Below, piece after piece: positions 1 to 18,668 of a stretch of DNA of 64,000 nt. The stretch is taken from the IMG/VR virus record IMGVR_UViG_3300010399_000034, positions 1-64,000 of that record; one strand, given 5' to 3'. The notes under the pieces were generated by a model. That model was not told where the DNA came from. It worked only from the letters and a program-made list of their open reading frames with translations, and made no database searches. Numbering within the stretch: the first letter of the stretch is position 1; every line of letters begins with the position of its first letter. This DNA comes from a virus. Position numbers and translations under genes: made by a program.

Positions 1-246
1 ACGTCGCTCACGACCGCATCGCGCCTCTGCGACCTGATCGATCAAGCGGACACCTCGCAGGGCAGCAACCCGTCGGTCCAGGGCGGTCCGTCGGCGTGGG
101 AGCTCGCGGCGGCGCGCTCCGAGCTCGCGCGACTCTACTCGCAGCAACAACAGCAAGCGCCTGCGGGGATGGACTGGACGAAGATCGCAATCGGCGCAGG
201 CATCCTCGGCGCCGTCGGTCTCGCGGCGTACGTCATCCTGAAGTGA
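1..246 (+). CDS. Partial (5'-truncated) protein with C-terminal membrane anchor
   Basis: Frame +1 open from base 1 to TGA 244-246, ending ...MDWTKIAIGAGILGAVGLAAYVILK*. Confidence 0.75.
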   Translation, partial: TSLTTASRLCDLIDQADTSQGSNPSVQGGPSAWELAAARSELARLYSQQQQQAPAGMDWTKIAIGAGILGAVGLAAYVILK

Positions 247-251
247 ACGAA

Positions 252-1799
252 ATGGTCATCCTGAACGGCGGTCTCGGTGATGCTTCCTCGTGCGCAGGTC
301 GTAGCTGGCCTGCGCCGTTCATTCAGAAGCGCGACATCAAGGCCTGTCGTCCGCTGATGACCTACTACAACGTTCCGTGCACTGCGGAGGTGATCGAGTG
401 TCTCCTCTTTCGCAAGGAGAAGTTCCTCGACAAGCAGCGCCAGCTCCGTGCGCTCTCGGGTCAACGGCCGGCGGGCGTCGATGAGCGAATGCGCTGGCTC
501 AAGTCGATGGCGTCGCTCATCGACGGCGCGCTCGATGACACGAACCTCCTGAACGTGTGGATGATCGGCGGGACGCCTCCGACCGACTACAACACGAAGG
601 CAGCGCTCGCGTCGCTCCCCGGCGATCTCTGGGCGAACGGCAATGCGTTCGTCAATACAATGCTGCGCTCGGCGGTCGACCGCGGCTATCCGTGCGTCAT
701 CTTCCCCGCCGGCTTCGGGTTCGTTGGCGACGAGCCTGCGGTAATGGGCGACGGCTCAGTTCGGCCGTTCGCCTACTTCCCGATGTACCACCGCGCGACG
801 GACTTCGTGCAGGACGTGCGCGGTCGTCCGCGTGCGCCGGTTGTCGTCACGCCCGGCACCTCCGGCGTGCGCGGTCTTCGCGGGCTCGGCTTCGGCGATG
901 GTCCTGGCGGCGCAGTCGATCCGCGCTCGTTGTCGCTCACCGCACGTGCTGCGGCGGGGACGGCTGGCGCCCCGGGAACAACGGCCGCGGTTCGTCGTGC
1001 GATGCAGACGAAGGGGTGGTTCCTCAACCCATTCTCGCTCGCACCGGAGATCCTCGCCGAGCATTTGCGACAACATCCTGGCACCGGCCTCGTCGTCGGA
1101 TCGATCCGCGTGCTGACTGACGCCGAGCGAACGTTCTGGACAAACCTCGGCGCGACGCCGCGCACCGACACCCGCGATGGTGTTCGCCAGGATGGCTGGA
1201 TGCAGCTCATGGTCCCCGCTGCGGGCGATATCATGGACTACTACGCGGCCGTCGCGCGCGACATCCAAGAGACCGCCTTCGAGGTCTTCGTGCTCTACGG
1301 CATGGAGAAGTGGGCGCAGAACCTGATGATCTGGGCGCAGAACGGCCGCGTGCAGATGCCCGTTCAGCAGTTCGTCGACACGATTCGCACGATCAACACT
1401 GCGCGTCTTCGCGCGACGTCGGGCGCATTCTTCGGCGTCTCGGCTGGGCTCGCTTCGGCAGTCAATCCGGTCGCAGGCGCCGTGATGCAGATCCTCGGCA
1501 CTGCTGCCGACGCGCTCGTCGCCGCTGTCGGTGCGGGTGTTGGCGGCTGGAACTGTCCGCTTCCGCTCACGCGTCGCAGCGCATCGGGCGACTGCGACTT
1601 CACGCACATCCTCGGGCCCGGCGCGCTTGAGCAGTCAGAGCGCCAGCGCGGCGGCATGGTGGAGTACTTCACGACGCCGCATCCCGCGCCGAGTGCGCCG
1701 TCGACGACGAGCTCGAGCAAGCCGTCGACTACGTTGATCCTCGGAGGCGTCGCGCTCGTCGCTGCCCTCGGCATCGGATACGTTCTACTCTCGGAGTGA
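252..1799 (+). CDS. Putative virion protein with C-terminal membrane anchor
   Basis: ATG 252 just after the previous stop; S/T linker then LILGGVALVAALGIGYVLL; GGLG and LRGLG motifs. Confidence 0.75.
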   Translation: MVILNGGLGDASSCAGRSWPAPFIQKRDIKACRPLMTYYNVPCTAEVIECLLFRKEKFLDKQRQLRALSGQRPAGVDERMRWLKSMASLIDGALDDTNLLNVWMIGGTPPTDYNTKAALASLPGDLWANGNAFVNTMLRSAVDRGYPCVIFPAGFGFVGDEPAVMGDGSVRPFAYFPMYHRATDFVQDVRGRPRAPVVVTPGTSGVRGLRGLGFGDGPGGAVDPRSLSLTARAAAGTAGAPGTTAAVRRAMQTKGWFLNPFSLAPEILAEHLRQHPGTGLVVGSIRVLTDAERTFWTNLGATPRTDTRDGVRQDGWMQLMVPAAGDIMDYYAAVARDIQETAFEVFVLYGMEKWAQNLMIWAQNGRVQMPVQQFVDTIRTINTARLRATSGAFFGVSAGLASAVNPVAGAVMQILGTAADALVAAVGAGVGGWNCPLPLTRRSASGDCDFTHILGPGALEQSERQRGGMVEYFTTPHPAPSAPSTTSSSKPSTTLILGGVALVAALGIGYVLLSE

Positions 1800-1802
1800 A
1801 AC

Positions 1803-2090
1803 ATGGCGATCATCTCGTTCGACGTTCGTGGTCTGGGTGACGTCAATATGACGATGCCAACGGTGCAGCTTACGTCGCAGGCGATGGCGGCACAGGTTGC
1901 AGCCATGCGCCGCGTCTCCGAGCAGAGCGGCCTACATCTCTACGAACGCCTCAACATCATGCCGCAGACGACCACGACGGCGGCAGGCTCGTTCATCGAT
2001 CAGTGGGGCATCCCGATCGCGGCCGGACTCGGCGCGTTCACGGTCGGCCTCGTAATCGCCAAGCTTGCAAGAAAGCGAAAGACGGCATGA
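1803..2090 (+). CDS. Small tail-anchored membrane protein
   Basis: VRGLGD near N-terminus; C-terminal TM followed by RKRK. Confidence 0.75.
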   Translation: MAIISFDVRGLGDVNMTMPTVQLTSQAMAAQVAAMRRVSEQSGLHLYERLNIMPQTTTTAAGSFIDQWGIPIAAGLGAFTVGLVIAKLARKRKTA

Positions 2091-2533
2091 CCCTCCCTAC
2101 GACGTACCATCCGGTCTATCAGGCAGCGACGCCCGACGTCGTGCGGCAGGAGATTCGCAATGCGGTGTACGAAGGTCGTGCTCCGCGCACCGCGCCAACG
2201 CGTGCCGAGCAGCAGACGACACAGGCGCAGACGCCGATGATCGCGCCGCTCGCGCAGCCGCGTATTCTCGCGACGGGCGCGGGGCGCGCTTCGCTCTTCG
2301 GGCCGGCTCAGGTTGGGATCATCCCGGGCAGCGGGCTCTCGCCGGCAGATCTTCCCGCAGGCAACACGTACGCGCAGCCGACTCCGGTCACGCCGTCGTC
2401 GCCGCTCAACGTCGTGCCGAACGGCACGCCGCTACAACAGGTCGCCGTTGTCGGTCGCAAGTACGCGCCATGGATTGCGGGCGCGATCGGGCTCGGCGCG
2501 GGGATCCTCGTCGCGCGTTTCATCTGGGGCTGA
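2087..2533 (+). CDS. Tail-anchored membrane protein
   Basis: ATGA overlap with previous gene; C-terminal WIAGAIGLGAGILVARFIW. Confidence 0.75.
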   Translation: MTLPTTYHPVYQAATPDVVRQEIRNAVYEGRAPRTAPTRAEQQTTQAQTPMIAPLAQPRILATGAGRASLFGPAQVGIIPGSGLSPADLPAGNTYAQPTPVTPSSPLNVVPNGTPLQQVAVVGRKYAPWIAGAIGLGAGILVARFIWG

Positions 2534-2617
2534 GCTCGAGCTCGCGCTGATCGGCAACCCGCGATCAATGGTTGCCTTCATCCAGAACGTGTAGGATAGT
2601 GTAGGTGCAGGTGGTAC

Positions 2618-2878
2618 ATGATCGTTGTGGAACAACGTAGTGCGACGTACGGACTCGGGGCGGCGCGATCGCCGACGATGGGTTGTCCCGGCGCGAAAAC
2701 GATCGTGCTGAACCGTGTTGCAGAGGCGGAGGGCGCTCGGCTCTCGGTCAGCAACGCGGGCACTGGCGCGGTCGGCGACGTCTTCTCGTCGGTTCCGACG
2801 TGGGCGTGGGTGGCGGGCGGTGCGCTCATCGCGGGGCTCGTCGCGGGCGCCGTCTACTTCAAGAAGCGAAAGGGCTGA
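2618..2878 (+). CDS. Small tail-anchored membrane protein
   Basis: YGLGA motif; C-terminal TM plus KKRKG. Confidence 0.75.
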   Translation: MIVVEQRSATYGLGAARSPTMGCPGAKTIVLNRVAEAEGARLSVSNAGTGAVGDVFSSVPTWAWVAGGALIAGLVAGAVYFKKRKG

Positions 2879-2881
2879 GCG

Positions 2882-3154
2882 ATGGCTCGCAAGAAGGTTC
2901 GTCGGAAGAAGACTGCGTGCGGCTCGCGCGGCCGCTTCAAGAGCGGCAAGCGCAAGGGACGTTGCCGCCCGAAGAAGGCGCACGCGAAGCGCGCACGTCG
3001 GAGTACGAAGACCAAGCGAGCGCGCCGTTTCTGCGTGCGCATCGCGGGCAAGAGGCGCTCGGTGAAGTGCTTCGCTTCGCAGAAGTCGGCAGCCCGCGCG
3101 ATGGGCAAGCTCTCCGCCGCTGGCGAGAACCCCGTCATGAAGATTCGCAAGTAA
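2882..3154 (+). CDS. Highly basic protamine-like protein (putative DNA-condensing core protein)
   Basis: 90 aa, very K/R-rich, paired Cys. Confidence 0.75.
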   Translation: MARKKVRRKKTACGSRGRFKSGKRKGRCRPKKAHAKRARRSTKTKRARRFCVRIAGKRRSVKCFASQKSAARAMGKLSAAGENPVMKIRK

Positions 3155-3166
3155 GGAGCGCAGCAG

Positions 3167-3268
3167 ATGGCTCGTCGTCGCAAGAAGAGCTCGTGCAAGT
3201 ACGGTCGGGTGAAGAGCGGACGTCGCAAGGGGCGTTGCAAGCTCCGCCGAGTCCGTCGTCGGAAGTGA
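3167..3268 (+). CDS. 33-aa protamine-like peptide (not in ORF track)
   Basis: AAGGAG RBS then MARRRKKSSCKYGRVKSGRRKGRCKLRRVRRRK*; similar to N-terminus of 2882-3154. Confidence 0.7.
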   Translation: MARRRKKSSCKYGRVKSGRRKGRCKLRRVRRRK

Positions 3269-3322
3269 TCGGTCAGGGTGACCTGGCTCTGTGAGGCGCT
3301 AGGGCGCCGGAGGAAGAAGACA

Positions 3323-3544
3323 ATGGCCAAGCGAAGGAAGCGCCGCGTGAAGCGTGCGAAGCGACGTTCGACCACCAAGCGCAAGTCGACTCGGCTGAAG
3401 GGCCGGCTCGTCTGCCCGAAGCGCTTCAAGGGCAAGAAGGTCCGTCGGCGCTCCGGCCACAAGGGCTGCTGGATCAAGCGCAAGGACGGCACGTTCCGCA
3501 TGATCAAGAAGGTCCGTCGCAAGGTCCGCCGGAAGAGGAAGTGA
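3323..3544 (+). CDS. Highly basic protamine-like protein
   Basis: GGAGG RBS; MAKRRKRR...VCPKRFKGKKVR... Confidence 0.75.
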   Translation: MAKRRKRRVKRAKRRSTTKRKSTRLKGRLVCPKRFKGKKVRRRSGHKGCWIKRKDGTFRMIKKVRRKVRRKRK

Positions 3545-3547
3545 TCC

Positions 3548-3757
3548 ATGGCGAAGCGTCGCAAGCGCGCGAAGAAGCGCAGCTCGAGTCGTGCGGTGTG
3601 CCCCAAGCGCTACAAGGGCGCGAAGGTGCGCAGCAAGAAGATGCGGGGTGGCACGCGCTGCTACATCGTTCGCAAGAGCGGGCAGTGGCGCTTCGTCCCC
3701 AAGAAGGGCGGCAAGTCCAAGAAGCGGGCGAAGTCGCGTCGGCGTAGCAAGCGCTGA
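3548..3757 (+). CDS. Highly basic protamine-like protein, paralog of 3323-3544
   Basis: MAKRRKR...VCPKRYKGAKVR... Confidence 0.75.
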   Translation: MAKRRKRAKKRSSSRAVCPKRYKGAKVRSKKMRGGTRCYIVRKSGQWRFVPKKGGKSKKRAKSRRRSKR

Positions 3758-3772
3758 TCGTAGGAGGGTCCG

Positions 3773-4486
3773 GTGCCCGATCCGATCACACAGAGCACGG
3801 CGAACGGCGAGTCCGTCACCCGTGCTCTTGCTTTCCTCGCTGCGAGCTACTTCGACCGGCTCGTCGCGGGAGATTGGGCGCGTGCGTCCGTTGTCCTCAA
3901 CGCGTTCTCGCAGGCGTACAACGTCCACCACGAAGCCTTCGTTGCGTACGCCGTGCGTCCAGGCGCAGACGCGTCGTGGCTGCCGGCGCGGATCGACGCG
4001 TTCTATACGCTCTCGACGCGCCGCGCTCTCGCAGCTGCGCTCGTCGTCGGTTTCGGAATCTCGTCGGCGATCGGCGAAGCGATGCCGGTCACTGTCGAGG
4101 TTGGCTCTGTCCGTCCGTGGTTCGAGCGCGTTCGTCCCGCGATCACTACGCCGGCTGATGCGTTCATGGACGCGATCGAACACGACTCGATGGGCACGCT
4201 CGGGACGAATATCATCTCGCGCGTCAACGGCATCCTCATGCGATCGACTGCCGAGGTCATCCGCGACGAACGCACGACGCCGTTCGATACGCCGCCTGCT
4301 GGGCCGGTGACGAACACAGACGCATCGCGAGGGCCGATCGTACAGGGTCCGTCGATCCTCGTGCATCCGACGCGCTTCGTCATGCCGACGTGGGGCTGGT
4401 GGGCGGTCGGGCTCGGCCTCGTCGCCGCTTCCGGTGTCGTGATCTACGGCGTCGTCGAGCGCGGATGGTTCGGGGGCAAGCGATGA
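3773..4486 (+). CDS. Tail-anchored membrane protein
   Basis: AGGAGG RBS, GTG start; C-terminal WWAVGLGLVAASGVVIYGVV. Confidence 0.75.
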   Translation: MPDPITQSTANGESVTRALAFLAASYFDRLVAGDWARASVVLNAFSQAYNVHHEAFVAYAVRPGADASWLPARIDAFYTLSTRRALAAALVVGFGISSAIGEAMPVTVEVGSVRPWFERVRPAITTPADAFMDAIEHDSMGTLGTNIISRVNGILMRSTAEVIRDERTTPFDTPPAGPVTNTDASRGPIVQGPSILVHPTRFVMPTWGWWAVGLGLVAASGVVIYGVVERGWFGGKR

Positions 4487-4629
4487 AGCGCCTCGCAAAG
4501 ACCTGTTACTACAAGGTCGCGGGCGTGAAGCGTCGCTTCAAGACGGCGCGTCGTGCAATGAAGGCGGCGCGTAAGCGCGGTCGCGGTGCTCGAGCGGTCA
4601 CTCAGGTGTGCCGTCTCGTTCTTGATTGA
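4483..4629 (+). CDS. Small basic protein
   Basis: ATGA overlap; MKRLAKTCYYKVAGVKRRFKTARRAM... Confidence 0.6.
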   Translation: MKRLAKTCYYKVAGVKRRFKTARRAMKAARKRGRGARAVTQVCRLVLD

Positions 4630-5982: not shown

Positions 5983-6522
5983 ATGGCCAAGCGTAGGCGT
6001 CGTCGTCGGATTCGGATGCGCGGACTCGGGGCAATGGGTCCCGCGGCGCGCTCGCTCGTGCCGGTTGCAGCAGGCGGGATTCTTACCGCTGGCGTGACCC
6101 TCGGTCTTCGTGCGTTCCTACGGCCGGATCCGGGAACGTTGAGCGCGACGCTCTACCGCTTCGCTCCGTTGATCGGATCGGTCGCGGGGCTCGTCGGCGC
6201 GGGCGCCATGTACATGGTCGCCGGTCCGTCGGCGGGGCTCGCAGCGGGCCTCACCAGCGTCATCGGCGGCGGTGCGCTCTTCGGCGCGGAAGCGCTGAAT
6301 GCGGCGAAGCCCGGCGGTCTCCTCGCCGTCAGCGGCCCGACCGCGGCGCTTCCCGCGGGCGATGGCACCGCGGGCCTTCGTGCACTGCTCCCGCAGTACG
6401 GCACCGAAGGACTCGGCGCGATCGTCATGAGCCCTGTGGGCGACACCTACGGCGACAGCGTCAACGTCGCCGGGCTCGGCGCCGGCTACCGGCCCAACGC
6501 GTTCGGGAAGAACGCGTTCTGA
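5983..6522 (+). CDS. Multi-pass membrane protein with arginine-rich N-terminal leader
   Basis: AGGAG RBS; MAKRRRRRRIRMRGLG then 2-3 hydrophobic segments; further EGLG and AGLG. Confidence 0.75.
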   Translation: MAKRRRRRRIRMRGLGAMGPAARSLVPVAAGGILTAGVTLGLRAFLRPDPGTLSATLYRFAPLIGSVAGLVGAGAMYMVAGPSAGLAAGLTSVIGGGALFGAEALNAAKPGGLLAVSGPTAALPAGDGTAGLRALLPQYGTEGLGAIVMSPVGDTYGDSVNVAGLGAGYRPNAFGKNAF

Positions 6523-6609: not shown

Positions 6610-7377
6610 ATGCAGAACGCAGCATGTTTCCCGGTGACGGTCGAGCTCGACGAGGCTGGTAAGCCCGTCCACGCGCTCAACCAGATCACCAAGGTTCGTC
6701 TCGCCGACGGGCGAGAAGTGGCGATCGTCGACTGGACGTGGCGCCCGCTCTACTCGACCATCGACACGTTCTCGGGGTGGACGAACCTCGAGATTCGCGC
6801 CTTCACGTACTCCGCGGGCGATCAGATCTCCTGGTCGAACGGCGGCACGGTGCGCGAGACCGCGACGCTCGTGCACACGAACATCTCCAGCGCCTCCGAG
6901 ATGGACGCGCTCGAAGAGTTCCTCGTGTACGGAATGTGCGTCGAGGTCTATCGCTGTCTCCAGAACACCGGCGCGAGCACGATCGACTTCAACGGCTCGG
7001 GCCTTCCCGGACCGCTGCCGCAGGTCTGGCACGTCGCGATGCTTCAGGCGGCGACGATCCTCGAGCTCGAGGTCTCGCAGAAGGCGTATCAGCAGGCTTC
7101 GACCGGCTGGTTCGCTGCGGGCTTCGGCGCGTACGGAACGGGTGTCGACGACACGAACGAGTTCATGTTCGGCAACAACGGGCATCCGAGCCGCGAAGCC
7201 GTCGACATGTACCCGGTCCCGGTCCACATCGGCGGCACCGAGAAGTACAACGTGATCCTGCACAACCCCCTCGGTCGTGCGATCAACTACGTCTCGGCGA
7301 CGAACGGTGCTCTCTCGAACATCGTCATCCGCCTCCGCATCAACCTGATGGGCCTCCACAAGCGGCCGAGCGCCTGA
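6610..7377 (+). CDS. Putative capsid protein 1 (single jelly-roll-like), paralog family A
   Basis: Beta-rich; shares KVRLADGR..W..PLYST and C-terminal GLxKRP with the next two genes. Confidence 0.6.
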   Translation: MQNAACFPVTVELDEAGKPVHALNQITKVRLADGREVAIVDWTWRPLYSTIDTFSGWTNLEIRAFTYSAGDQISWSNGGTVRETATLVHTNISSASEMDALEEFLVYGMCVEVYRCLQNTGASTIDFNGSGLPGPLPQVWHVAMLQAATILELEVSQKAYQQASTGWFAAGFGAYGTGVDDTNEFMFGNNGHPSREAVDMYPVPVHIGGTEKYNVILHNPLGRAINYVSATNGALSNIVIRLRINLMGLHKRPSA

Positions 7378-7398: not shown

Positions 7399-8115
7399 AT
7401 GGCTCAGCTAGACAAGATCAGATTCGCAGACGGCCGCGTGCAACGGCCGGGCGACTGGACGGCCTCGCCGCTCTACTCGACGGTCGAGATCGACGACGCG
7501 GCAGCGCTTCCTCCTCTCGACGGCTTCTCCTACGGCAACGGTGGCGATGTGCCGGGCTCGGTCGGTCCGCGACAGAGCACGATTGTCGACACCAACATGG
7601 AAGGCCAGGGCTCGATCCTCGCCGAGAACGAAGAGCTTCTCCTCTTCGGCCTCTGCATCGAGCTTATCCAGATCACCGCCGCGACCACGACGAACTTCTT
7701 CACGTCGCAGGAAGCGTGGTGTCCGGACCCGCCGCTCGTCAGCGCGACGAACTGTCAGCGCATTCTTCGCGACACCTTGGTGCGGATGAAGATCGCCGCG
7801 ACCAAGGACTACCTCGCGGTCCCGCTCGGGTGGCTGCCAGGTGCGCGTGGTGTCGACCACACGTACGGCTCGGCGCGCTCGGTCGGCTCGACGTGGACCG
7901 AAGGCGTCTTCGTCGGCTACAACGGCGCGAACTACGAGGGGGCGCATCGTCTCTTCGCGACGCCGCACCAGGTCGCACCGGGCGAGCAGTTCATCGTGCG
8001 CCTCGAGTTCCCCTTCGGGACGATCTCGGGCCTCGAGTTCGGCCTCCCGGATACGAGTGCGCGCATCAAGGCGCGTATCTACCAACGCGGTCTTCGCCGC
8101 CGCCCGGTCGCGTGA
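7399..8115 (+). CDS. Putative capsid protein 2 (single jelly-roll-like), paralog family A
   Basis: KIRFADGR..DW..PLYST, TNMEGQG, PHQVAPGEQFIVRL, GLRRRP. Confidence 0.6.
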   Translation: MAQLDKIRFADGRVQRPGDWTASPLYSTVEIDDAAALPPLDGFSYGNGGDVPGSVGPRQSTIVDTNMEGQGSILAENEELLLFGLCIELIQITAATTTNFFTSQEAWCPDPPLVSATNCQRILRDTLVRMKIAATKDYLAVPLGWLPGARGVDHTYGSARSVGSTWTEGVFVGYNGANYEGAHRLFATPHQVAPGEQFIVRLEFPFGTISGLEFGLPDTSARIKARIYQRGLRRRPVA

Positions 8116-8128: not shown

Positions 8129-8827
8129 ATGTCCAGCCTGAACAAGGTCCGACTCGCAGACGGCAGAGAGATCGCGATCGCCGAGTGGTACCATCAGCCG
8201 CGCTACTCGACGATCGAGTTCGCCGCGACGTCCGCAGTGAACCTGCGGATGTGGAACTACACGGTCGGCAACAACGTCTCCTCGGTCGGTACGGCGGCAC
8301 GGCAATCGACCGAAGCCGACACGAACCAGATCAAGAAGAAGGCGATGAACATGGACGAAGCTCTCATCGTCATGGCCATCACCTACGAGATCTTCGCGCT
8401 CACGAGCGACGTCGACAACAGCGCGCTCGTCGTGGCGCCCGAGCCGATGACGCTCTCCACCGACGTCCGCCGTCTTCAGCACCAAGGCATCTTCGAGCTG
8501 AAGGTCGGCGCCGGCATCAAGAAGCCGCAGTACGAGGTTCCGTTCGCCTGGCTCTGCCAGTCGCCCGGCACCAAGGCCTACGCTTCGCCCGCCGGCACGA
8601 CGACGGTCCGCATCGACTACGGCACCGGCGGCGAGATCAGCGCCGACGATCAAGAGCTGCTCGCGCTTCCGATCTACATCGGCGGCTTCGGGCAGCAGGC
8701 CAAGCCGGGCAACGCAATGTTCTTCGAAGGCCGTTTCTACAACGGCGACGGCGGCGCCTTCACCGGGCTTCGGCAGAACATGCGGATCCGGTTCTACCTC
8801 GACGGCCTCCAGAAGCGGCCGGCCTGA
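8129..8827 (+). CDS. Putative capsid protein 3 (single jelly-roll-like), paralog family A
   Basis: GAGG RBS, ATG 8129; KVRLADGREIAIAEW..PRYST, LPIYIGG, GLQKRP. Confidence 0.6.
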   Translation: MSSLNKVRLADGREIAIAEWYHQPRYSTIEFAATSAVNLRMWNYTVGNNVSSVGTAARQSTEADTNQIKKKAMNMDEALIVMAITYEIFALTSDVDNSALVVAPEPMTLSTDVRRLQHQGIFELKVGAGIKKPQYEVPFAWLCQSPGTKAYASPAGTTTVRIDYGTGGEISADDQELLALPIYIGGFGQQAKPGNAMFFEGRFYNGDGGAFTGLRQNMRIRFYLDGLQKRPA

Positions 8828-8923: not shown

Positions 8924-10063
8924 ATGCGCGCTGACGACGACACGCTCCTCCACGAACCTCGGGCCCTTTGGACCGTGCAGGCGTTGCTTGCCGAGGCGCT
9001 CGAGGCGAACGTCGAAGAAGACATCGTCGTCTCGACCGGGCGCGTGCTAGTCCCGAAGGACGACTTCAAGAACACGAGCCGCTATCCGATCACGCTGACA
9101 AAGATGTGCGTCTGCGCGATCGGCTACACGTATCGCGAGTACGAGTTCACGGCGACGCCGGAGGCCGTGCACAACTCGATGATGGCGGCACAGAACCAGG
9201 TGAAGATCTTCCTCTCGTCGCCGTATTCGTTTCATCTCGACCGCAACGACTTCATCGTCAATCAGGCGCCGCCCGATCCGACGGCCGAGCCTGGCATGCG
9301 CTACGACCCAACTATTGGAAGCTACTCTTCGGGCATCTGGGGGCTCAATCGCTGGACGTTCGATCGCTGCCTCTGGCTCCCGCGCAAGGCGACGCTTCAA
9401 CTCGACATCGGCACGTGGATCATTCCGGATCTCGGCTTCGGCGCGCCGCCGGCTATCTACACGTCGGTGCAGTTCGACGAGCCGCAGACTGGAATCCTCG
9501 GCGGTAACAATCGTCTCCGTGCACGCGCGGCGATCCCCGCTGTCTTCGATACGCATGCTGCCGCAGTCGGGATCCCTGCGCCTGACGCGTTCGGTGCTGG
9601 CAATGGCGGCACGAGCTTCGTGACCTACCCAGCCGAAGGGCTCTTCAAGCCGAACGTCTTCAACCGGCAGGAGAGCGATCGTGGCCAGGACATGAACGCC
9701 TTCACCGGCTTCGCCGTCGCGCTTGATCAGATCGACTACGACCTCGCGATTCAGGCACTCGGTGTGGACTTCGCCGCCAAGCCGATCGCGCCGATCGGGA
9801 CGCGCATCGTCACGCGCGCCAAGTGCAGCAACGGCGGTACGAACGAGTGGTGGTGGCGGCCTAACGCGCCGCTCTGTCTGGTCTCGCCGACGATGGGTCC
9901 GGCGACGGTCTACACTCTGCGCAAGCCCATCGTGCTCGGCCCCGGAGAGCAGCTCGAGGTGGAGCTTCAGGCGCCGCCGATCGTGACCATCGACGACACA
10001 CCCTTTCAACCCACCTACCAGATCGGTGTGTCGTTCACCGGCTACGCGACCATCGAAGGTTGA
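8924..10063 (+). CDS. Putative capsid/vertex protein with tandem beta-rich domains (family B)
   Basis: FKNTSRYPITLT, WTFDRCLWL, NGGTNEWW, PIVLGPGEQLEVEL, VSFTGY; aligns by eye with 10066-10998. Confidence 0.55.
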   Translation: MRADDDTLLHEPRALWTVQALLAEALEANVEEDIVVSTGRVLVPKDDFKNTSRYPITLTKMCVCAIGYTYREYEFTATPEAVHNSMMAAQNQVKIFLSSPYSFHLDRNDFIVNQAPPDPTAEPGMRYDPTIGSYSSGIWGLNRWTFDRCLWLPRKATLQLDIGTWIIPDLGFGAPPAIYTSVQFDEPQTGILGGNNRLRARAAIPAVFDTHAAAVGIPAPDAFGAGNGGTSFVTYPAEGLFKPNVFNRQESDRGQDMNAFTGFAVALDQIDYDLAIQALGVDFAAKPIAPIGTRIVTRAKCSNGGTNEWWWRPNAPLCLVSPTMGPATVYTLRKPIVLGPGEQLEVELQAPPIVTIDDTPFQPTYQIGVSFTGYATIEG

Positions 10064-10065
10064 TC

Positions 10066-10998
10066 ATGGACAAAAACGAGTACATGCAGCGCCTCGCCAA
10101 GCGCAACCTCGTCGAGAAGGACGCGAAGCACTTCGAGCCGCGCCTCTTCTTCGATTCGTTCGTGTTCGACGGGCAGACGGCACGCGTCTTCTCGCAGCCC
10201 GACGTCTATCGCAATGGCGAGAAGTTCCCGTTCCGGGTCACGCACCTCAGTGCGTCGATGCTCTTCACGTCGGACGAGCTTCAGAACCCGGTGGGCGGCG
10301 ACGAGCGGATGATTCAACGCTACTCGATGCGCATCAGGGCGCATGGCGTCTACTACCAGAACTCCGACGTCACACCGATCCCGCTTTGGGCGAATAAGCC
10401 GGTGGCTGCCGCAGACGTTACGACACTCTCGCAGTCGTGCTGGCGCTTCGACAAGCCTTTCATCCTCGGCAATCGTGACACCTTTCAAGTCGAGGTCTCG
10501 CTTATCGTTGCGCCCGACACCGATCTGACGGAGCGCGTCGCGGTGACTTTCGCGGGTCTAGGGCTCTACTCGCGGATGCCGAAGATCTTGACGAGCGAGA
10601 TCGATCTCGCGGACACGCTCGTCGCGACGATGGACACCAACGACTTCCGCAACGACGGCACCGAGCCGCTCGAAGTGACGCACATGGTCGTGCATCACAC
10701 GCCGTCGGTCGAAGTGACCAACCCAGTCGGCAACATCCGCAATGTCAAGCTGCGTGTGCGCGCCAATGGCAATGGTACCAATCAATGGTGGAACTGGACC
10801 GCGGTCTCGGCTGCGACGCAGCTCGTTCCAGCGCAGCTCTTCGGGCTCACGACGGGGCGCTCGGTCGTGCACGAGCTCCCCGGTGACGGCTGGCTCTGGT
10901 ATCCGAACGAAGGTGTGACGGTCGAGGTCGAGTCGCAGGACACGTCGCGCCGGGATACGGTGCTCATCGCCATGGCCGGCTACATCATGGTGACGTGA
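10066..10998 (+). CDS. Putative capsid/vertex protein with tandem beta-rich domains (family B)
   Basis: Internal repeat YRNGEKFPFRVTH / FRNDGTEPLEVTH and VAVTFAG / VLIAMAGY; GNGTNQWW. Confidence 0.55.
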   Translation: MDKNEYMQRLAKRNLVEKDAKHFEPRLFFDSFVFDGQTARVFSQPDVYRNGEKFPFRVTHLSASMLFTSDELQNPVGGDERMIQRYSMRIRAHGVYYQNSDVTPIPLWANKPVAAADVTTLSQSCWRFDKPFILGNRDTFQVEVSLIVAPDTDLTERVAVTFAGLGLYSRMPKILTSEIDLADTLVATMDTNDFRNDGTEPLEVTHMVVHHTPSVEVTNPVGNIRNVKLRVRANGNGTNQWWNWTAVSAATQLVPAQLFGLTTGRSVVHELPGDGWLWYPNEGVTVEVESQDTSRRDTVLIAMAGYIMVT

Positions 10999-11351
10999 TG
11001 CTGCGCAAGAAGACCGAGTGGTATCGGACGACGCTCACGACGCTGCCGAGCATCATCGTGCCGCAGGAAGAAGGCGTGGGAGGGCTGCGTCGTATCACGC
11101 TCCTCGTTCGCGACTCGGCGCAGATTCAGGTCGCGCTCGATAAGGAGGTCGTGCCGTACAAGCCGGTGTCCGACGTCGATCCGACGACGGACGAAGCTGG
11201 CTCGAACGAGATCGACGCGCGCGACGCGTATTGGCCCGAGCCTCCGGTGAATAAGCAGATCATCTTCGAGATCCTCCCAGATCAGTGGGTCGTCGGTCGC
11301 GCTGCGGACGAGCTGCACGAGCTCTCCGTCATCGTCGAGTACCTGGAGTAA
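10998..11351 (+). CDS. Small beta-rich putative virion protein
   Basis: Coupled start; alternating hydrophobic strands. Confidence 0.6.
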   Translation: MLRKKTEWYRTTLTTLPSIIVPQEEGVGGLRRITLLVRDSAQIQVALDKEVVPYKPVSDVDPTTDEAGSNEIDARDAYWPEPPVNKQIIFEILPDQWVVGRAADELHELSVIVEYLE

Positions 11352-11354: not shown

Positions 11355-12158
11355 ATGGGCGCCGGACGAAGCGCAGACGTCTTCTCGATGCTGAGCGAGC
11401 TCAATCTGAGCGAGCAGAGCCTCACGCGTGCATGGGTCGCAGCGCAGTTCTTGGCGGCCAACGGCGCGCTCAACGAGCAGACGCGTCGCGCGGTGATGAC
11501 GCAGCGTGATGCCGTCTTCGGCATCCAGCAGACCATCTACAGCGCGATCCAGCGCGTCCTTGGGCCCATCGGGCAGAGCGATGCGATCCCGCAGCCGCGC
11601 CCGCTCCCGGATCTTCCACCTTCCGGCCAGCCCACGCAGCCGAACATGGTCCAAACGGACGGCCTCGGCATCGCGCCTGCGATCGTTTGGGCCGCTGCGG
11701 TCGTCGGCATCTTGATCCATCTCGCCGCGATCTACGCGGTCGTGCGCGTCATCCAGATCGGCGCCGACGCCGTCGTTCGGATGTACGCGATCCGTGAGAA
11801 CACCAAACGCCTCGATCTGCACACGCGCTCGCAGCAAGACCGCTTTCAACAGTGCCTTGCACAGACGCGCGATCCTGTACGCTGCGCCAATCTCTTTCCG
11901 CTCCCCGATCCGCAGCTCGAGGACACCACTGCGCATCTGCCGATGGACCCCGTCCTCCTCGGCGTCGGCATCGTCTCGGCGATCCTCTCGCTCGGTGTTG
12001 TCGGCTACGTCTTCTGGGAGTTCAGCTCTTCGACGCGCGGTGCGAGTGCGCCTTCGCGGATCTCGGGCGTGCGCGGGCATCCGCAGCTTCTCTCCGGGAC
12101 GGACGTGAGCCGCAGCCTTCGCGCCGACTTCGACGACGAAGAGGACGAGGACGACTGA
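11355..12158 (+). CDS. Membrane protein (two TM segments, acidic tail)
   Basis: DGLG immediately before TM1; DDEEDEDD C-terminus. Confidence 0.7.
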   Translation: MGAGRSADVFSMLSELNLSEQSLTRAWVAAQFLAANGALNEQTRRAVMTQRDAVFGIQQTIYSAIQRVLGPIGQSDAIPQPRPLPDLPPSGQPTQPNMVQTDGLGIAPAIVWAAAVVGILIHLAAIYAVVRVIQIGADAVVRMYAIRENTKRLDLHTRSQQDRFQQCLAQTRDPVRCANLFPLPDPQLEDTTAHLPMDPVLLGVGIVSAILSLGVVGYVFWEFSSSTRGASAPSRISGVRGHPQLLSGTDVSRSLRADFDDEEDEDD

Positions 12159-15426: not shown

Positions 15427-15504
15427 GTCCTCGACATTTCAATGTTCGCAGGCTAGGGTTGTTTCTCTCCAGCAAGGGTGCTCGGAGCTAGAAGGGTGGT
15501 TTCA

Positions 15505-16419
15505 ATGCAGCAGAATGGTGGTCAACCTATGGTTGCCCCGCCGCACGGCGTTCGTACGCCGATCGACGGAGCACAGACGCAGCCGCTTGCCGTCGGAGGC
15601 TTCGCGCCGGTCAAGCCGGTGATGCCTTCGCCGGTGCAGTGGCCGCAGCCGCAGCAACAAGGCGGCTGGGCGCCGCCGCAAGCCGCTCCTGTTGTTCCCG
15701 CAGTGCCTCCGCTCGAGGCGCGTCTTCATCCGAACGATCGCGCGAACGTCGTCGAAGGCATCCGCGCAGGCGCTTCGGTCGCGGAGATCCTTCCGTACTT
15801 CGCCGCCGCGCAGCTCACGGTCGACGACCTCCGTGTGATCGCGAAGACCGCAGGGCTCGTGCTGAATGAGGGACAAGGTTCCGTGCAGGTGCCTGCCTCG
15901 CAACAGCCGTTGCCTCCGCCCGCAGCCGCACAACAGCCGGTGCAGCCCACGCAGGCAGGTGGACCCGTCGTCGAGAAGGTCGTGCAGCGGATCACGAAGA
16001 AGCACTGGCCTGCGATCGAAGCGCTCGTGACGCAAGGCGCGTCGGCAGCTCAGATCGCGCAGCAGCTCGGACTCCCCGAGTCCGGTGTCGAGCGTGCATG
16101 CAAGGAGCTCGCGAAGGCTCGGGGTCAGCAGCAGCCTGTGCAGCAGGCCATGGGCCCGACACCGGCTCCCGTCGCGGAGACGGGCGCGATGGTCGGCCAT
16201 CCGCCGCCGATCGAAGAGCCAGCAGCCGCGCGCGATACGTCTGTGGCGCAGAGTTTTGCCGCAAGTTACGGCGCGGCCGACGACGTGACCAACTACGATC
16301 AGCGGCTCTTGCGGTCGTTGGAGATGCTCGAGGCGGTTCGCGCACTCGGGCGTGAGCGCGGCTACTCCTATCAGGAGATCGAAGCTGCGGCCGGGCTGCT
16401 CCACGTCACGCGAAGCTGA
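15505..16419 (+). CDS. Q/P-rich protein with helix-turn-helix
   Basis: GASAAQIAQQLGLPESGVERAC HTH pattern among low-complexity linkers. Confidence 0.6.
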   Translation: MQQNGGQPMVAPPHGVRTPIDGAQTQPLAVGGFAPVKPVMPSPVQWPQPQQQGGWAPPQAAPVVPAVPPLEARLHPNDRANVVEGIRAGASVAEILPYFAAAQLTVDDLRVIAKTAGLVLNEGQGSVQVPASQQPLPPPAAAQQPVQPTQAGGPVVEKVVQRITKKHWPAIEALVTQGASAAQIAQQLGLPESGVERACKELAKARGQQQPVQQAMGPTPAPVAETGAMVGHPPPIEEPAAARDTSVAQSFAASYGAADDVTNYDQRLLRSLEMLEAVRALGRERGYSYQEIEAAAGLLHVTRS

Positions 16420-16754
16420 TGGTCGCGGTGGTCGCGCTCAGGGGTTCGCGCAATACACAGATCGCCTACCTCTACGAATGGATCCGCGGTCTCGATGGTG
16501 CGCGCCTGCGCATCCGCGAGCTCGAGCCGAACCCGCGGATCCATCGTGAGGAGGACGAGCGCATCGCGGTTTACACGGGCGAGGCGTTCGTCCGACGAGG
16601 CGTCCTTGGTGAGCCCGAATACGACTTTCCGGACGGGCGGCTCTTGATCATCCTCTGCTTCACCGGGCCCGAGGTCAGCGTCGAGTGGGTGTGCCCGACG
16701 CATGCAGGGCTCGCGCAGACGGCAATCGCCCGACTTCGCGAACGATTCGGCTGA
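16419..16754 (+). CDS. Hypothetical protein
   Basis: TGATG coupling to the previous gene. Confidence 0.6.
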   Translation: MVAVVALRGSRNTQIAYLYEWIRGLDGARLRIRELEPNPRIHREEDERIAVYTGEAFVRRGVLGEPEYDFPDGRLLIILCFTGPEVSVEWVCPTHAGLAQTAIARLRERFG

Positions 16755-16796
16755 GCTAGCCCAGCGCCGCCGGGCGGGGTAGGATGGTGTAGGCGT

Positions 16797-17048
16797 ATGT
16801 ACTACATTGCCCCCGTCCGGCGGCTTGCTCTTGCGGGCCCAGCGCCGAAACGCGTCCCGATGGATTCGTTCGTCCGGATCGCGGCGCCGCTCGTGACGGG
16901 GCTTCTGAGCGTCGTGGGGATCGTCTACGCGGCTCGCGGCAACAGCAAGGCCGCGATGATCTTCGCGCTCTCGGGGCTCACGCTCAGCGCCGTCGTCGCG
17001 TCTGGGCAAGCGCTCGTGCTCGAAGAGGAGCGGGGGAGGATCGGATGA
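16797..17048 (+). CDS. Small two-TM membrane protein
   Basis: Two hydrophobic segments. Confidence 0.65.
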   Translation: MYYIAPVRRLALAGPAPKRVPMDSFVRIAAPLVTGLLSVVGIVYAARGNSKAAMIFALSGLTLSAVVASGQALVLEEERGRIG

Positions 17049-17581
17049 TCGTCACGATTGCAGTGCGCACGGTGCAGCGCGGGCTCTACACGCAGAACCG
17101 CGCGAACCCGCGCGTCCTCTCGCCGGGCACCGTCGATGGACGCTGGGGGCCGCGTACACAGGCGTCGCTCGACAGCTTCGTGCGGCTCTACGGCGATCCG
17201 GCGCACGTCGGATTGATCCGCAGCGGCTACATCAACTACCCGGTGGGTGCGGGCGCGATCACGCTCGATGGGATCGTCGCCTCGCAGCTCACTGAAGCGG
17301 CGCGCGAGTTCAACGGCCCTGAGGTGCAGGACATCGCCACCGCCGACGAGATCGTGGCGACGCGCGAGAATCAGTCGGCGCAGGTCGTCGGCAGTCCGTT
17401 CGGCCCGGCGACGGTGATCGCTCGCAGCGATCCGATGCGCACCTCGTCGTTTCTGCCGATCATGATGGGCCTCGGTGCAGCGGGGCTCCTCTTCGGTCTC
17501 GGATACCTCTTCTGGAAGGGCTCCAAGGGCGGTCGTCGCGGGCGAACTCCGCGTAGCCGCGCAACCGTCGTTCACTGGTAG
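17045..17581 (+). CDS. Peptidoglycan-binding domain protein with C-terminal membrane anchor
   Basis: VRTVQRGL...VDGRWGPRTQASL (PG_binding_1 DG.xG..T motif); TM plus basic tail. Confidence 0.7.
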   Translation: MIVTIAVRTVQRGLYTQNRANPRVLSPGTVDGRWGPRTQASLDSFVRLYGDPAHVGLIRSGYINYPVGAGAITLDGIVASQLTEAAREFNGPEVQDIATADEIVATRENQSAQVVGSPFGPATVIARSDPMRTSSFLPIMMGLGAAGLLFGLGYLFWKGSKGGRRGRTPRSRATVVHW

Positions 17582-17590
17582 GAGAGACGC

Positions 17591-17971
17591 ATGATCAAGT
17601 ACGCACTCTTTTTCGGCGTGGGCGCAGCGGGCGGAGCGATCGCGACGGTCACCGCGTGGCTCATCGTCTCGAAGGCGCTCGATCGGCAGTTCGACAGCGC
17701 GGCGGGTGAGTTCGTCACGCGTGGCTCGGCCGAGCTTCGTCGGACGCTCGATACCGAGATTCCGGCCCGCGTCGGCGCGGCGATCGATCAGAAGTTCGCC
17801 GAGGCAGGCATCACGCGGCAGACGGGGCAGCAGCTCACGACGCTGCTCGACGCCGCCGATCGCATCGGGCTTATCGGGCTGAGCGGTCGTCCGAACGCGC
17901 CGCGCACCGTGCGTTGGGGTCGGCCGAACACGCCGAACGCGGCACGTCCGTGGTTCATGGGCCGGGCATGA
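17591..17971 (+). CDS. N-terminally anchored membrane protein
   Basis: AGGAG RBS; N-terminal hydrophobic segment. Confidence 0.65.
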   Translation: MIKYALFFGVGAAGGAIATVTAWLIVSKALDRQFDSAAGEFVTRGSAELRRTLDTEIPARVGAAIDQKFAEAGITRQTGQQLTTLLDAADRIGLIGLSGRPNAPRTVRWGRPNTPNAARPWFMGRA

Positions 17972-18279
17972 CTGAGCTCAAGCCGTGGTTCTGGGTGTTC
18001 GGGGGCAGTCTCGCGGCGAGTGGGATCCTGCTCACGTTCCTCATCCTCGAGAAGAAGAAAGCGCTCGAACAGCGCGCGAACGAGCTGCGCATGCAACTCA
18101 CCGCGCAGAGTGGTACGAGCGTCTACGCGCAGCAGATGACGCAGATGCGGCACGATCTCGAGACGTACACGGACACGCTCGCGCATCGCGCTGCCGACGA
18201 TCACATTGGCCGTTACTACGGGCTCACGCCCGAGCGGATGACGAACATTCAGCGGCTTGCAAGGCAGCTCGGCCTCTGA
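17968..18279 (+). CDS. N-terminally anchored membrane protein
   Basis: ATGA overlap; WFWVFGGSLAASGILLTFLIL then coiled coil. Confidence 0.65.
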   Translation: MTELKPWFWVFGGSLAASGILLTFLILEKKKALEQRANELRMQLTAQSGTSVYAQQMTQMRHDLETYTDTLAHRAADDHIGRYYGLTPERMTNIQRLARQLGL

Positions 18280-18668
18280 TGCGTTGTCCGATCCAGCGCG
18301 AGTTTCTGCGGCTGATCAACATGTCGCCCGCCGAGATGCGCCGTTGGACCAAGGACACCAAGTCGCGCTGCTACAACTACACCGAGGACGCGCCGCGTAC
18401 GCGCAAGATCGCCGATCTGAAAGCGAAGAACAGAAAGCGCTGGACCTCTGAAGACTGCGCGCTCGCCTCGGCTGCGGTCGCGTACGTGAAGCGCATGAAG
18501 AGCGCGGCTTCGGGTAAGCAGCTCTGTCACCCGCAGATCACCGGGTCCTTGCGGAGCTGGGGCCATCGATCGCGCTGTGCGCCTCGTAAGTGCGAGCAGC
18601 TGAGCGAGACGAAGCTCGCCGGTACGCCTCGTGTTGCATGGCGGAAGATTCCAATCAAGAAGCCTTGA
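18279..18668 (+). CDS. DUF3140-like protein
   Basis: EFLRLINMSPAEMRRW...AYVKR...SLRSWGH matches the DUF3140 pattern (F..LVNM...EL..W...SL.NWGH). Confidence 0.6.
   Translation: MRCPIQREFLRLINMSPAEMRRWTKDTKSRCYNYTEDAPRTRKIADLKAKNRKRWTSEDCALASAAVAYVKRMKSAASGKQLCHPQITGSLRSWGHRSRCAPRKCEQLSETKLAGTPRVAWRKIPIKKP

Follow-up and report, generated by a model that had tools for sequence, protein, structure and literature searches.

A candidate virion module centred on jelly-roll proteins in an uncultured, unusually large bacterial virus

What does a virus build with a long run of membrane-anchored, basic and beta-rich proteins? The question is raised by the start of IMGVR_UViG_3300010399_000034, a soil virus record of 86,806 bp including a 123-bp terminal repeat; the window, that is, the whole stretch analysed here, is its first 64 kb, the remaining 22.8 kb lying outside. 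A first-pass annotation had described an 18-kb co-oriented block, and GC-frame gene calling confirmed a single block filling positions 1-18279 on the + strand (the strand of all block features given below). Its true start is at genome position 84858, beyond the window, from where it runs across the terminal repeat; the first gene, also outside, encodes a transglutaminase-fold cysteine protease. On balance we favour a reading of this block as the virion module of an uncultured dsDNA bacterial virus of ~87 kb, with a shell of jelly-roll proteins and not of the HK97 fold.

About 115 genes were called in the 86.8-kb genome, and 50 proteins were taken into a PHROGs profile search. Shine-Dalgarno-like motifs precede 55 of 112 genes, and an M23 peptidase (46564-47214), ParB and other bacterial-phage genes are present, as are an integrase (36570-37448) and the PolA/UDG replication module that had been proposed. 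The two canonical Walker A proteins of the genome are a Sak4-type AAA_24 protein and a DUF3987 primase. The synteny of the module is kept across 24 related loci. Profile searches covered six genomes, this record and five relatives, two of which are rated 100% complete (G003, 69.5 kb, and G004, 77.0 kb with DTR); in these two, anchored, basic and jelly-roll genes follow one another in the same order as here.

Protease, membrane-anchored proteins and basic proteins

The protein at the head of the module is predicted to be a transglutaminase-core cysteine peptidase with a Cys-His-Asp triad: it matches PF01841 (transglutaminase-core; E 1.5e-5, 25.7 bits against a cut-off of 23), and Cys130, His162 and Asp178 are invariant in 7/7 orthologs. 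The motif G-L-G is enriched fivefold in the 20 structural proteins, where 17 occurrences were observed against 3.4 ± 1.8 expected and none of 1000 shuffles reached 17; in the 83 other proteins, 13 were observed against 10.0 expected (217/1000 shuffles). Sites of the form L/F/M-R-G-L-G recur, and in seven a hydrophobic residue occupies -4. The enrichment suggests, at the level of sequence, that structural proteins undergo proteolytic maturation at G-L-G.

Membrane-anchored proteins had been claimed for the block, and C-terminal hydrophobic anchors were indeed found in seven genes. The first is the junction gene, which runs from genome position 86258 across the terminal repeat and ends at 246 (3' part 1..246); its 224-aa product carries two G-L-G motifs besides the anchor. 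It is followed by a 518-aa protein (243-1799) with a single C-terminal transmembrane anchor (residues 494-512), which has no relative in PHROG, Pfam or PDB and whose positional counterparts in G004 and G003 (749 and 763 aa) are likewise C-terminally anchored. Two basic anchored proteins (2003-2533, 176 aa, pI 11.3; 2618-2878, 86 aa, pI 10.0), a 237-aa protein with transmembrane segments at 85-103 and 209-227 (3773-4486) and two proteins of 156 and 257 aa with G-L-G motifs close to the N-terminus (4626-5096 and 5093-5866) complete the set.

The basic core-like proteins of the earlier description correspond to five small ORFs with a K+R content of 35-58% and a pI of about 12. Four are protamine-like (2882-3154, 3167-3268, 3323-3544 and 3548-3757; 90, 33, 73 and 69 aa; K+R 41-58%, pI 12) and are candidate DNA-condensing core proteins; tiny ORFs of pI 10-12 occupy the matching position in G003 and G004. 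The fifth (4483-4629, 48 aa) has a K+R content of 35%. Last before the capsid-type genes, a lineage-core membrane protein (5983..6522) carries an arginine-rich leader with R-G-L-G at its end, and its orthologs retain the basic leader and G(L/F)G.

Jelly-roll proteins and genes downstream

The conserved centre of the module, as modelled, consists of three adjacent single jelly rolls and two proteins with a jelly-roll base and an inserted beta-sandwich. The three single jelly-roll capsid-type proteins (6610..7377, 255 aa; 7399..8115, 238 aa; 8129..8827, 232 aa) are mutual paralogs (BLAST E 9e-15 to 2e-21), and so are the 379-aa protein at 8924..10063 and the 312-aa capsid-type protein at 10060..10998 (hhalign probability 99.4, E 3.3e-21). 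Trio and pair have no detectable relation (hhalign probabilities 4.3 and 0.05), so that the five beta-rich paralogs first proposed stand as paralogs within the trio and within the pair, not as one family. Both folded conserved structural families, that of the trio and that of the 312-aa protein, were modelled as jelly rolls, the fold suspected earlier.

The closest structural matches of the trio all come from internal-membrane icosahedral viruses (P23-77, 6.5; HHIV-2, 6.4; SH1, 6.3; HCIV-1, 6.1). In the 312-aa model (pLDDT 92.1, pTM 0.88), N- and C-terminal segments form the jelly-roll base around an inserted beta-sandwich domain at about residues 118-248; by homology, the 379-aa paralog would combine the same base with a larger insert. 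This nested layout is supported by residue couplings (66 of the 89 top couplings are intra-domain, background 0.46, p 5.7e-8). A tandem layout was rejected, with only 40/97 couplings (p 0.85); the two halves give a weak self-alignment. The top VIA rows of the model are PBCV-1 (8.9), EhV-201 (8.8), Faustovirus (8.2) and HHIV-2 (8.1), and its fold alignments span one domain of about 105-128 residues. There were 117 Foldseek PDB matches with E ≤ 1e-3, and birnavirus VP2 accounts for 17/17 among the matches listed (PDB chains with E from 9e-6 to a best value of 1e-7); birnavirus polyproteins also lead the BFVD list (best E 9e-9). In VP2 a second beta-barrel is inserted into the jelly-roll shell domain and projects from it, the same nested plan as in the 312-aa protein; the resemblance is architectural and implies no kinship, birnaviruses being dsRNA animal viruses and the global superposition being poor (TM 0.21, rmsd 21 Å).

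Downstream lie a 118-aa acidic protein (10995..11351) whose position is kept in relatives (109 aa in G003 and G004), a 267-aa protein with three hydrophobic segments and an acidic tail (11355..12158) and a 168-aa acidic protein (12938/12980-13486), the putative beta-sandwich gene product of the first-pass annotation. The next gene (13483-15426) encodes a 647-aa putative receptor-binding spike with a weak beta-helix signal (Pfam Beta_helix, sub-threshold, E 0.094); in this two-gene region the G004 counterpart gives weak tail-spike PHROG matches (E 8.4e-4 and 0.006). A 307-aa protein with a helix-turn-helix segment (15496..16419) precedes small proteins (16419..18279), four of them with one or two transmembrane segments, which may have holin-like or membrane roles; the gene at 17591-17971 is conserved in G001, G003 and G004.

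Assembled into one scheme, the small and large jelly-roll proteins would form the capsomers and vertices of an icosahedral shell, by analogy with SPV1 and P23-77/SH1-type viruses, around an internal lipid membrane that holds the C-terminally anchored proteins. The protamine-like proteins would condense the DNA, and a genome so condensed would be enclosed by co-assembly and not pumped in by a dedicated motor. During maturation the protease would trim the basic leaders and other sites at G-L-G; the 647-aa protein would serve as the receptor-binding spike, and the M23 peptidase and small transmembrane proteins may act in entry or lysis. Internal membrane, taillessness and icosahedral symmetry are what we infer from this gene content. 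An unlikely alternative is a virus that uses jelly-roll structural proteins in another architecture, externally enveloped, pleomorphic or otherwise non-icosahedral, or membrane-free, whose anchored proteins work solely in the membrane of the host, in assembly, entry or lysis. The VP2 matches of the 312-aa model, the significant ones among the matches listed, would suit it, VP2 forming a membrane-free capsid, as would the absence of lipid-synthesis genes among the proteins scanned, in which an SGNH hydrolase is the sole lipid-related hint. Against it, at least seven anchored proteins, and the basic proteins with them, have kept their position in relatives between protease and capsid genes despite lost sequence similarity, which points to structural roles, and the trio matches internal-membrane icosahedral viruses best.

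Tailed-phage and packaging genes

The first-pass annotation had found no terminase, portal, HK97 capsid or tail families in the 64 kb; the same holds for the further 22.8 kb, and no terminase-portal-HK97 operon was detected on the 86.8-kb record or in the five relatives. These absences come from six-frame profile searches with positive controls, HMMs that very divergent genes could escape. It is quite unlikely that the virus is a member of Caudoviricetes, a tailed phage in which the genes for terminase, portal, capsid and tail have become too divergent to detect and the jelly rolls serve as decoration, cement or fibre. The terminase large subunit profile PF03354 (TerL_ATPase) found nothing in this genome (0/1) or the relatives (0/5), and Terminase_6N (PF03237), Phage_capsid (PF05065) and Phage_portal (PF04860) each scored 0/5 genomes. 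Of the proteins compared with PHROGs, 50 from this genome and 10 from G004, none matched a capsid family, and the ten G004 structural proteins include no head, portal or tube family. Three proteins of at least 400 aa are unassigned: a membrane-anchored one, the one with the weak beta-helix signal, and a third, of 741 aa, that has no match in PHROGs, Pfam, PDB sequences or Atlas and no tblastn match in either complete relative. This leaves no conserved protein as a candidate terminase or portal, and the conserved non-membrane structural genes are those of the five jelly-roll proteins and the 118-aa protein.

Some weak PHROG rows did appear: a tape-measure row on the M23 peptidase (E 9.1e-5), with similar rows on the M23 peptidase domain in G004, and a minor-head row on the integrase (E 0.0019). 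PHROG 'terminase' rows on a 900-aa protein (73684-76386) were discarded, the signal being an intein within an SNF2 helicase.

Jelly-roll, anchored and protamine-like proteins together with a protease, in genomes where tailed-phage head, tail and packaging genes were not detected, make it probable that the virus represents an undescribed lineage of tailless bacterial viruses of unusually large size. It is very unlikely that the block instead belongs to a large plasmid-like or integrative element and assembles beta-sandwich proteins into a cell-surface or membrane-associated structure (fibres, adhesins, a vesicle coat). The records carry a viral classification and two have terminal repeats, the replication genes are of phage type and the M23 peptidase is a core gene of the lineage, and no conjugation or secretion ATPase occurs among the proteins scanned. 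Capsid proteins give the best fold matches, a protease and protamine-like proteins in one operon suit a nucleoprotein core better than a surface organelle, and two pattern scans of 185,579 species genomes found no copy, so that no chromosomal or plasmid residence was seen.

Comparison with known viruses

Some points count against our preferred reading of a jelly-roll virion module. The large proteins of 518, 647 and 741 aa have no firm place in it. ATPase-free packaging of 87 kb is, to our knowledge, unprecedented among large dsDNA phages, and a terminal repeat, if physically real, usually implies a terminase-like cutter. A search for the A32/FtsK-HerA packaging ATPase of PRD1/PM2-like and Sphaerolipoviridae-like viruses, to which the block had been likened, gave no detection in the six genomes (Pox_A32, PF04665, 0/5 genomes; FtsK, PF01580, 0/5 over cut-off); membership in either group is thus a poor fit. 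The double jelly-roll (DJR) viruses (Tectiviridae, Corticoviridae, FLiP-like) differ from this virus by their A32/FtsK-type ATPase feature, and PRD1, PM2, FLiP and phiCjT23 by a tandem double jelly roll, which the coupling analysis rejects here. Most prokaryotic DJR viruses also replicate by protein-primed polymerases or rolling circle, unlike this one. The claim that known jelly-roll viruses of prokaryotes are much smaller is sustained for the DJR viruses, with 7-18 kb given in an excerpt of one source (PMC5894146) and <20 kbp in an excerpt of another (PMC8812541). The same excerpts describe the A32/FtsK-type ATPase as absent in the Odin and FLiP groups of DJR viruses (PMC5894146) and an FtsK-HerA packaging ATPase as encoded by the Helvetiavirae/Singelaviria viruses P23-77, SH1, HHIV-2 and HCIV-1 (PMC8812541).

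The likeness to Helvetiavirae/Singelaviria lies in at least two single jelly-roll MCPs side by side, here three adjacent capsid-type paralogs; the difference lies in their FtsK-HerA ATPase and two capsid genes, against an undetected ATPase and five capsid-type genes. Their genomes measure about 17-31 kb, and we know of no protease or protamine-like proteins in them. SPV1 (Portogloboviridae) infects archaea and has a genome of about 20 kb, and no sequence similarity to it was detected; the present genome, of ~86.7 kb, encodes two larger capsid-type proteins besides the three paralogs, as well as a protease, and has genes and ribosome-binding sites of bacterial type. Adenovirus offers a working analogy: its arginine-rich core proteins condense DNA and its virion cysteine protease cleaves precursors at (M/L/I)-x-G-x-G, which resembles the basic core proteins, protease and short glycine motifs of the module, where cleavage is putative. 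It differs in having adenain in place of a transglutaminase-core protease, a packaging ATPase and a tandem double jelly-roll hexon.

More tentatively, these genomes could belong to a lineage of bacterial dsDNA viruses that is new at high rank: icosahedral, membrane-containing, tailless particles of five jelly-roll proteins, with genomes of 70-90 kb and no terminase or FtsK-type motor, DNA condensed by protamine-like proteins and enclosed by co-assembly, and a transglutaminase-fold protease cutting at G-L-G. If so, an adenovirus-like core-and-protease logic would have arisen independently in bacteria, SPV1-like and Helvetiavirae-like capsids would be linked, and the genomes would be roughly three to four times those of any known prokaryotic jelly-roll virus. 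Tailless phages with single jelly rolls are not known to exceed about 31 kb; the general view is that tailless jelly-roll phages are small, and that large dsDNA phages have tails and depend on a terminase. A widespread 70-90 kb lineage with neither packaging machine would break both assumptions and give motor-free packaging of a large genome a test case in bacteria. It would also bring a third capsid-gene arrangement, three small and two tower-bearing jelly rolls, into the debate on SPV1-like, Helvetiavirae and DJR kinship, and would show that current viral classifiers place such genomes among tailed phages because of their replication genes.

The capsid-type families of the trio and the 312-aa protein form 62 and 65 metagenomic clusters at 90% identity (the second 188 at 50%), and neither occurs in 50,697 deposited phages. 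The myxobacterium-like host suggested at first found no support: the sole host label is one Planctomycetota MAG, on a 2.6-kb contig. Records carrying these capsid genes range from 52.9 to 89.5 kb.

Genome ends and layout of the proposed virion module

The record is 86,806 bp long (an IMG/VR virus classed as having direct terminal repeats), of which the window covers bases 1-64000. The same 123 bases stand at both ends as a direct terminal repeat (1-123 and 86684-86806), which would fit either a circular genome or fixed ends; terminal repeats were also assigned to G004, one of the relatives analysed as full records. G+C content is 59-68% along the window, and raw ORF lists were therefore crowded with antisense frames. 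Gene calling by G+C at codon positions, together with a codon model specific to each frame, yielded ~115 genes; Shine-Dalgarno-like cores were present upstream of 55 of 112 starts (vs 12.7% at random positions), and a search of the window for tRNA genes was negative. Among public sequencing runs, the genome was fully present in a single soil metagenome, possibly the source of the record itself; one further soil run contained a small share of it and no RNA run did.

The first-pass annotation had described a co-oriented morphogenesis block beginning at base 1. The single plus-strand, operon-like array held up and its start did not: the module begins at 84858 in genome coordinates, crosses the terminal repeat and extends to ~18279 of the window. 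A junction gene (86258 to window position 246, + strand, 224 aa) spans the repeat and encodes a C-terminal anchor. Hydropathy scans showed the membrane-anchored proteins ascribed to this block, with single C-terminal anchors in the products of the junction gene, 243-1799, 2003-2533, 2618-2878, 4626-5096 and 5093-5866, and with one anchor near the C-terminus plus one additional segment in that of 3773-4486. The basic core-like proteins were also recovered, as five small ORFs of extreme composition (K+R 35-58%, pI ~12), four of which are preceded by a Shine-Dalgarno-like sequence. For the putative beta-helix spike (13483-15426, 647 aa), Pfam offered a sub-threshold beta-helix match (E 0.094).

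Database searches with the module proteins were mostly silent. No structural PHROG family matched the 20 proteins between 243 and 18279, the only PHROG matches among them being to helix-turn-helix families, on 15496-16419. Pfam gave sub-threshold rows and nothing over threshold for the module proteins, and PDB sequence searches with the 741-, 647- and 518-aa proteins and with the family profile A4 returned nothing for structural proteins. Matches in the Atlas were viral clusters without names; the 379-aa protein had a neighbour at 0.77, carrying P2_N/P2_C, the PM2 capsid domains, which lies below the lead threshold and was given no weight.

Predicted folds of the capsid-type proteins

Five beta-rich genes had been proposed to form one paralogous family. 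Paralogy is evident, in two separate sets: a trio (6610-7377, 7399-8115 and 8129-8827; BLAST E 9e-15 to 2e-21) and a large pair (8924-10063, 379 aa, and 10060-10998, 312 aa; hhalign probability 99.4%, E 3.3e-21). Kinship between trio and large pair was not detectable (hhalign probabilities of 4.3% and 0.05%) and was rejected as a reading.

In keeping with the jelly-roll capsids anticipated from the sequence, the predicted structure of the first trio member is mainly beta (44-row alignment, pLDDT 84.8, pTM 0.78) and resembles viral jelly-roll capsid proteins, SPV1 best. Foldseek returned no match at E <= 1e-3 with this model; its best match was SPV1 (E 9.4e-3, probability 0.98), and P23-77, HHIV-2, HCIV-1 and SH1 appeared within 50 rows, amid TNF-like and other sandwiches. 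An exhaustive structural aligner placed SPV1 first (7.3), followed by HHIV-2 (6.4), PHM (6.3), P23-77 VP17 (6.2), SPMV (6.1) and HCIV-1 (6.0), and in a second alignment round SPV1 reached 8.0 over 132 residues at 3.3 A, ahead of P23-77 (6.5), HHIV-2 and PHM (6.4 each), SH1 (6.3) and HCIV-1 (6.1). Complex prediction on the three trio members stayed below its mark of 0.32 (0.18 and 0.02) and speaks neither for nor against an assembly. The trio members and their orthologs in related loci (L006-L027) all end in (K/R)(K/R)RP(V/A)(A/G) directly before the stop codon, an invariant basic tail that may serve in membrane or DNA contact or as a processing signal.

In the predicted layout of the 312-aa protein, strands from both termini close a jelly-roll base into which a beta-sandwich is inserted. 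We deduced this layout from residue couplings and not from model coordinates, using a mean-field analysis of 166 family members (effective number 145), because the couplings fit a nested and not a tandem partition: with residues 20-112 and 262-312 as one domain and 118-248 as the other, 66 of 89 couplings drawn from the top 100 fell within domains (background 0.46, p 5.7e-8), whereas a tandem double jelly roll held 40 of 97 (p 0.85) and was rejected. Reading the second pair as a tandem duplication is not supported either. Aligned with each other, the two halves of the 312-aa sequence show a weak match (E 3.1e-4, probability 39.5%). The same nested plan is that of birnavirus VP2, and in P23-77-type viruses the large capsid proteins that bear towers likewise combine a jelly-roll base with a beta-sandwich insert.

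Structure searches with the confident model of this protein (59 rows, pLDDT 92.1, pTM 0.88) gave 117 Foldseek matches in the PDB at E <= 1e-3. All 17 rows listed were birnavirus VP2, the best at 1e-7, yet with a TM of 0.21, and BFVD returned birnavirus polyproteins (best 9.3e-9), then CRESS/circovirus capsids and a few tail proteins. The exhaustive aligner ranked a capsid chain of PBCV-1 (8.9), EhV-201 (8.8), Faustovirus (8.2) and HHIV-2 (8.1) highest, then an orf virus scaffolding protein (7.5), STIV (7.4) and PHM (7.3), and, further down, phiCjT23, hexon, FLiP and PRD1 P3 at 6.0-6.8; each row aligned over ~105-128 residues, some covering residues 120-239 only. Profile positions ~131-218 also matched Ig-like ASH/HYDIN/DUF1573/Cep192_D4 repeats in giant surface proteins of bacteria (810-3800 aa), with between 6 and 21 matches in each. 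We did not retain the middle domain as an Ig-like repeat of this kind: individual matches reach only 13-20 bits, and neither structure search shows an Ig/PapD-type fold in its top 50 rows. The resemblance, seen at the profile level, might stem from a strand motif of local extent, or it might show where the inserted domain came from.

Conserved gene order and a predicted maturation protease

Among 90%-identity clusters, the search at E <= 1e-3 brought up 62 relatives for the first jelly-roll protein, on records of up to 89.5 kb, and there are 65 for the 312-aa family; an exhaustive profile search extended the latter, at 50% identity, to 188 clusters, of which 127 had E <= 1e-30. None of these relatives bears an informative name, and the sole organism label, Planctomycetota, comes from a MAG whose contig is 2.6 kb long. 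By tblastn, neither the 312-aa protein nor the third jelly-roll protein matched any of 50,697 deposited phages, and two pattern scans of 185,579 GTDB species genomes revealed no relative, so that these scans offered no prophage or host clue.

Gene order is common to 24 related loci: an opposite-strand primase, the protease and a variable stretch are followed by the 5983-type protein (a membrane protein with an arginine-rich leader, gene 5983-6522), the jelly-roll trio, the 379/312 pair and, last, a small acidic protein. At BLAST level, with the core defined on the full records of G001, G003 and G004, the structural part includes the protease, the 5983-type protein (no match in G003), the trio and a 126-aa TM protein, together with the 379/312 pair in G003 and G004 only. 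The replication part includes both polymerase parts, the AAA_24 protein, an exonuclease, SNF2, the primase and a 127-aa protein at 81255-81638; the recombinase (G003, G004), an M23 peptidase (G001, G003), an SGNH hydrolase and a 204-aa protein also belong to the core. Where sequence similarity is gone, G003 and G004 keep the architecture, and their protease-to-jelly-roll stretch encodes basic proteins, tiny proteins (pI 10-12) and C-terminally anchored proteins of ~280 aa and 749/763 aa.

At the head of the module is a gene whose product falls in the transglutaminase-core family by profile match (E 1.5e-5, 25.7 bits vs a cut-off of 23), and Cys130 (in G-D-C-D-D), His162 and Asp178 are kept in 7 of 7 orthologs. 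Across the 20 structural proteins (4043 residues) the motif G-L-G occurs 17 times, as compared with 3.4 +/- 1.8 in shuffled sequences (none of 1000 reached 17); the 83 other proteins contain 13, for 10.0 in shuffles (217/1000). Seven sites carry a hydrophobic residue at -4, vs 0.9 expected (1/1000). Several of all the G-L-G sites directly follow basic N-terminal leaders. From its likelier start, the 5983 protein has an arginine-rich leader ending in R-G-L-G, and its orthologs in G003 and G004 have basic leaders ending in G-F-G. These motifs are consistent with a maturation step in which the predicted transglutaminase-core protease would cleave structural proteins at putative G-L-G sites.

Packaging genes, replication set and the probable nature of the virion

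Packaging and head families were searched in six frames in the genome itself and/or five relatives, each with positive controls in reference genomes. TerL_ATPase was found neither in the genome nor in any of the five relatives; Terminase_6N, Phage_capsid, Phage_portal and Pox_A32 were found in none of the relatives; and FtsK_SpoIIIE was not found over cut-off in these five, where a G001 frame of 71 aa gave a single match of 12 bits. A terminase-portal-HK97 operon, not seen in the window by the first-pass annotation, was not detected on the full record or in the relatives (six-frame and PHROGs), among them G003 (69,483 bp) and G004 (76,963 bp, terminal repeats), both rated 100% complete. A strict Walker A search of all six frames retrieved two motifs in called genes, in the primase and in a 250-aa protein; the latter was discarded as a packaging ATPase, being an AAA_24 (Sak4-type) ATPase that adjoins a weak DUF669 match. 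PHROG "terminase large subunit" matches to a 900-aa protein were dismissed as well, since they map to the intein of an SNF2 helicase. From G004, ten proteins of the structural module yielded no more than an M23 endolysin-like protein and a weak resemblance to tail spikes.

A virion that lacks a tail and has a jelly-roll shell is the simplest account and probably the correct one, because five conserved jelly-roll capsid-type genes occur with a likewise conserved set of anchored and protamine-like proteins and a dedicated protease, and because HK97, portal, terminase and tail genes were not detected in six genomes. Such a particle would contain an internal membrane and condense its DNA without a motor, and the 647-aa protein may form its spike. 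It would be closest in working to SPV1 and the P23-77/SH1 group. It differs from SPV1 in predicted host type and in genome size and from Helvetiavirae in that the packaging ATPase of that group was not found here, and the tandem double jelly roll of PRD1/PM2-type viruses is not supported. A jelly-roll virus of some other architecture is unlikely. The claim that known jelly-roll viruses are much smaller agrees with two papers, which put prokaryotic double jelly-roll virus genomes at 7-18 kb (PMC5894146) and <20 kbp (PMC8812541). The literature searched, mostly titles and abstract openings, held nothing on jelly-roll phages of 70-90 kb. That the genome represents a new high-rank lineage with motor-free packaging is a tentative proposal.

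A very divergent tailed phage is unlikely, because no conserved unassigned protein is big enough for a terminase or portal. The replication and recombination set is phage-type, and the expected PolA/UDG module is present, with a UDG-domain protein preceding a family-A DNA polymerase (59677-62538, - strand) within which lies a LAGLIDADG intein. The set also includes an RNase T-type and a second exonuclease, the AAA_24 ATPase, the SNF2 helicase with its Hint/LAGLIDADG intein (genome 73684-76386, - strand; L001:9684-12386 in the part beyond the window), a DUF3987 primase-helicase and a DNA methyltransferase. A 741-aa ORF (genome 78193-80418, - strand; L001:14193-16418) is shared with G001 only, at 27-30% identity; PHROG, Pfam, PDB and Atlas searches brought up no other relative of it, and its Atlas model is poor (pTM 0.22).

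A non-virion structure on a plasmid-like element is also unlikely. 

Several accessory genes were also seen. A ParB-like protein (34634-35542, - strand) and a tyrosine recombinase (36570-37448, - strand; tblastn matches in G003 and G004, not G001) together point to a carrier state in which the genome would be circular, plasmid-like or integrating. A 10-kb glycan and methylation cluster (18918-29418) lies directly downstream of the virion module and could decorate virion proteins or DNA; it encodes a double GT2 fusion (847 aa), a UDP-glucose/GDP-mannose dehydrogenase, a radical SAM/SPASM enzyme, a UDP-GlcNAc 2-epimerase and four class I methyltransferase-like genes. The conserved M23 peptidase (46564-47214, + strand) is matched in G001 and G003, and in G004 the structural module ends with a C-terminally anchored protein that contains an M23 domain. 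The SGNH/GDSL-type hydrolase of the lineage core lies at 48931-49548 (- strand). A 483-aa multi-haem cytochrome c-like protein (50732-52183, - strand) gave several weak haem-binding and cytochrome c/di-haem peroxidase matches, a gene type uncommon in phages.
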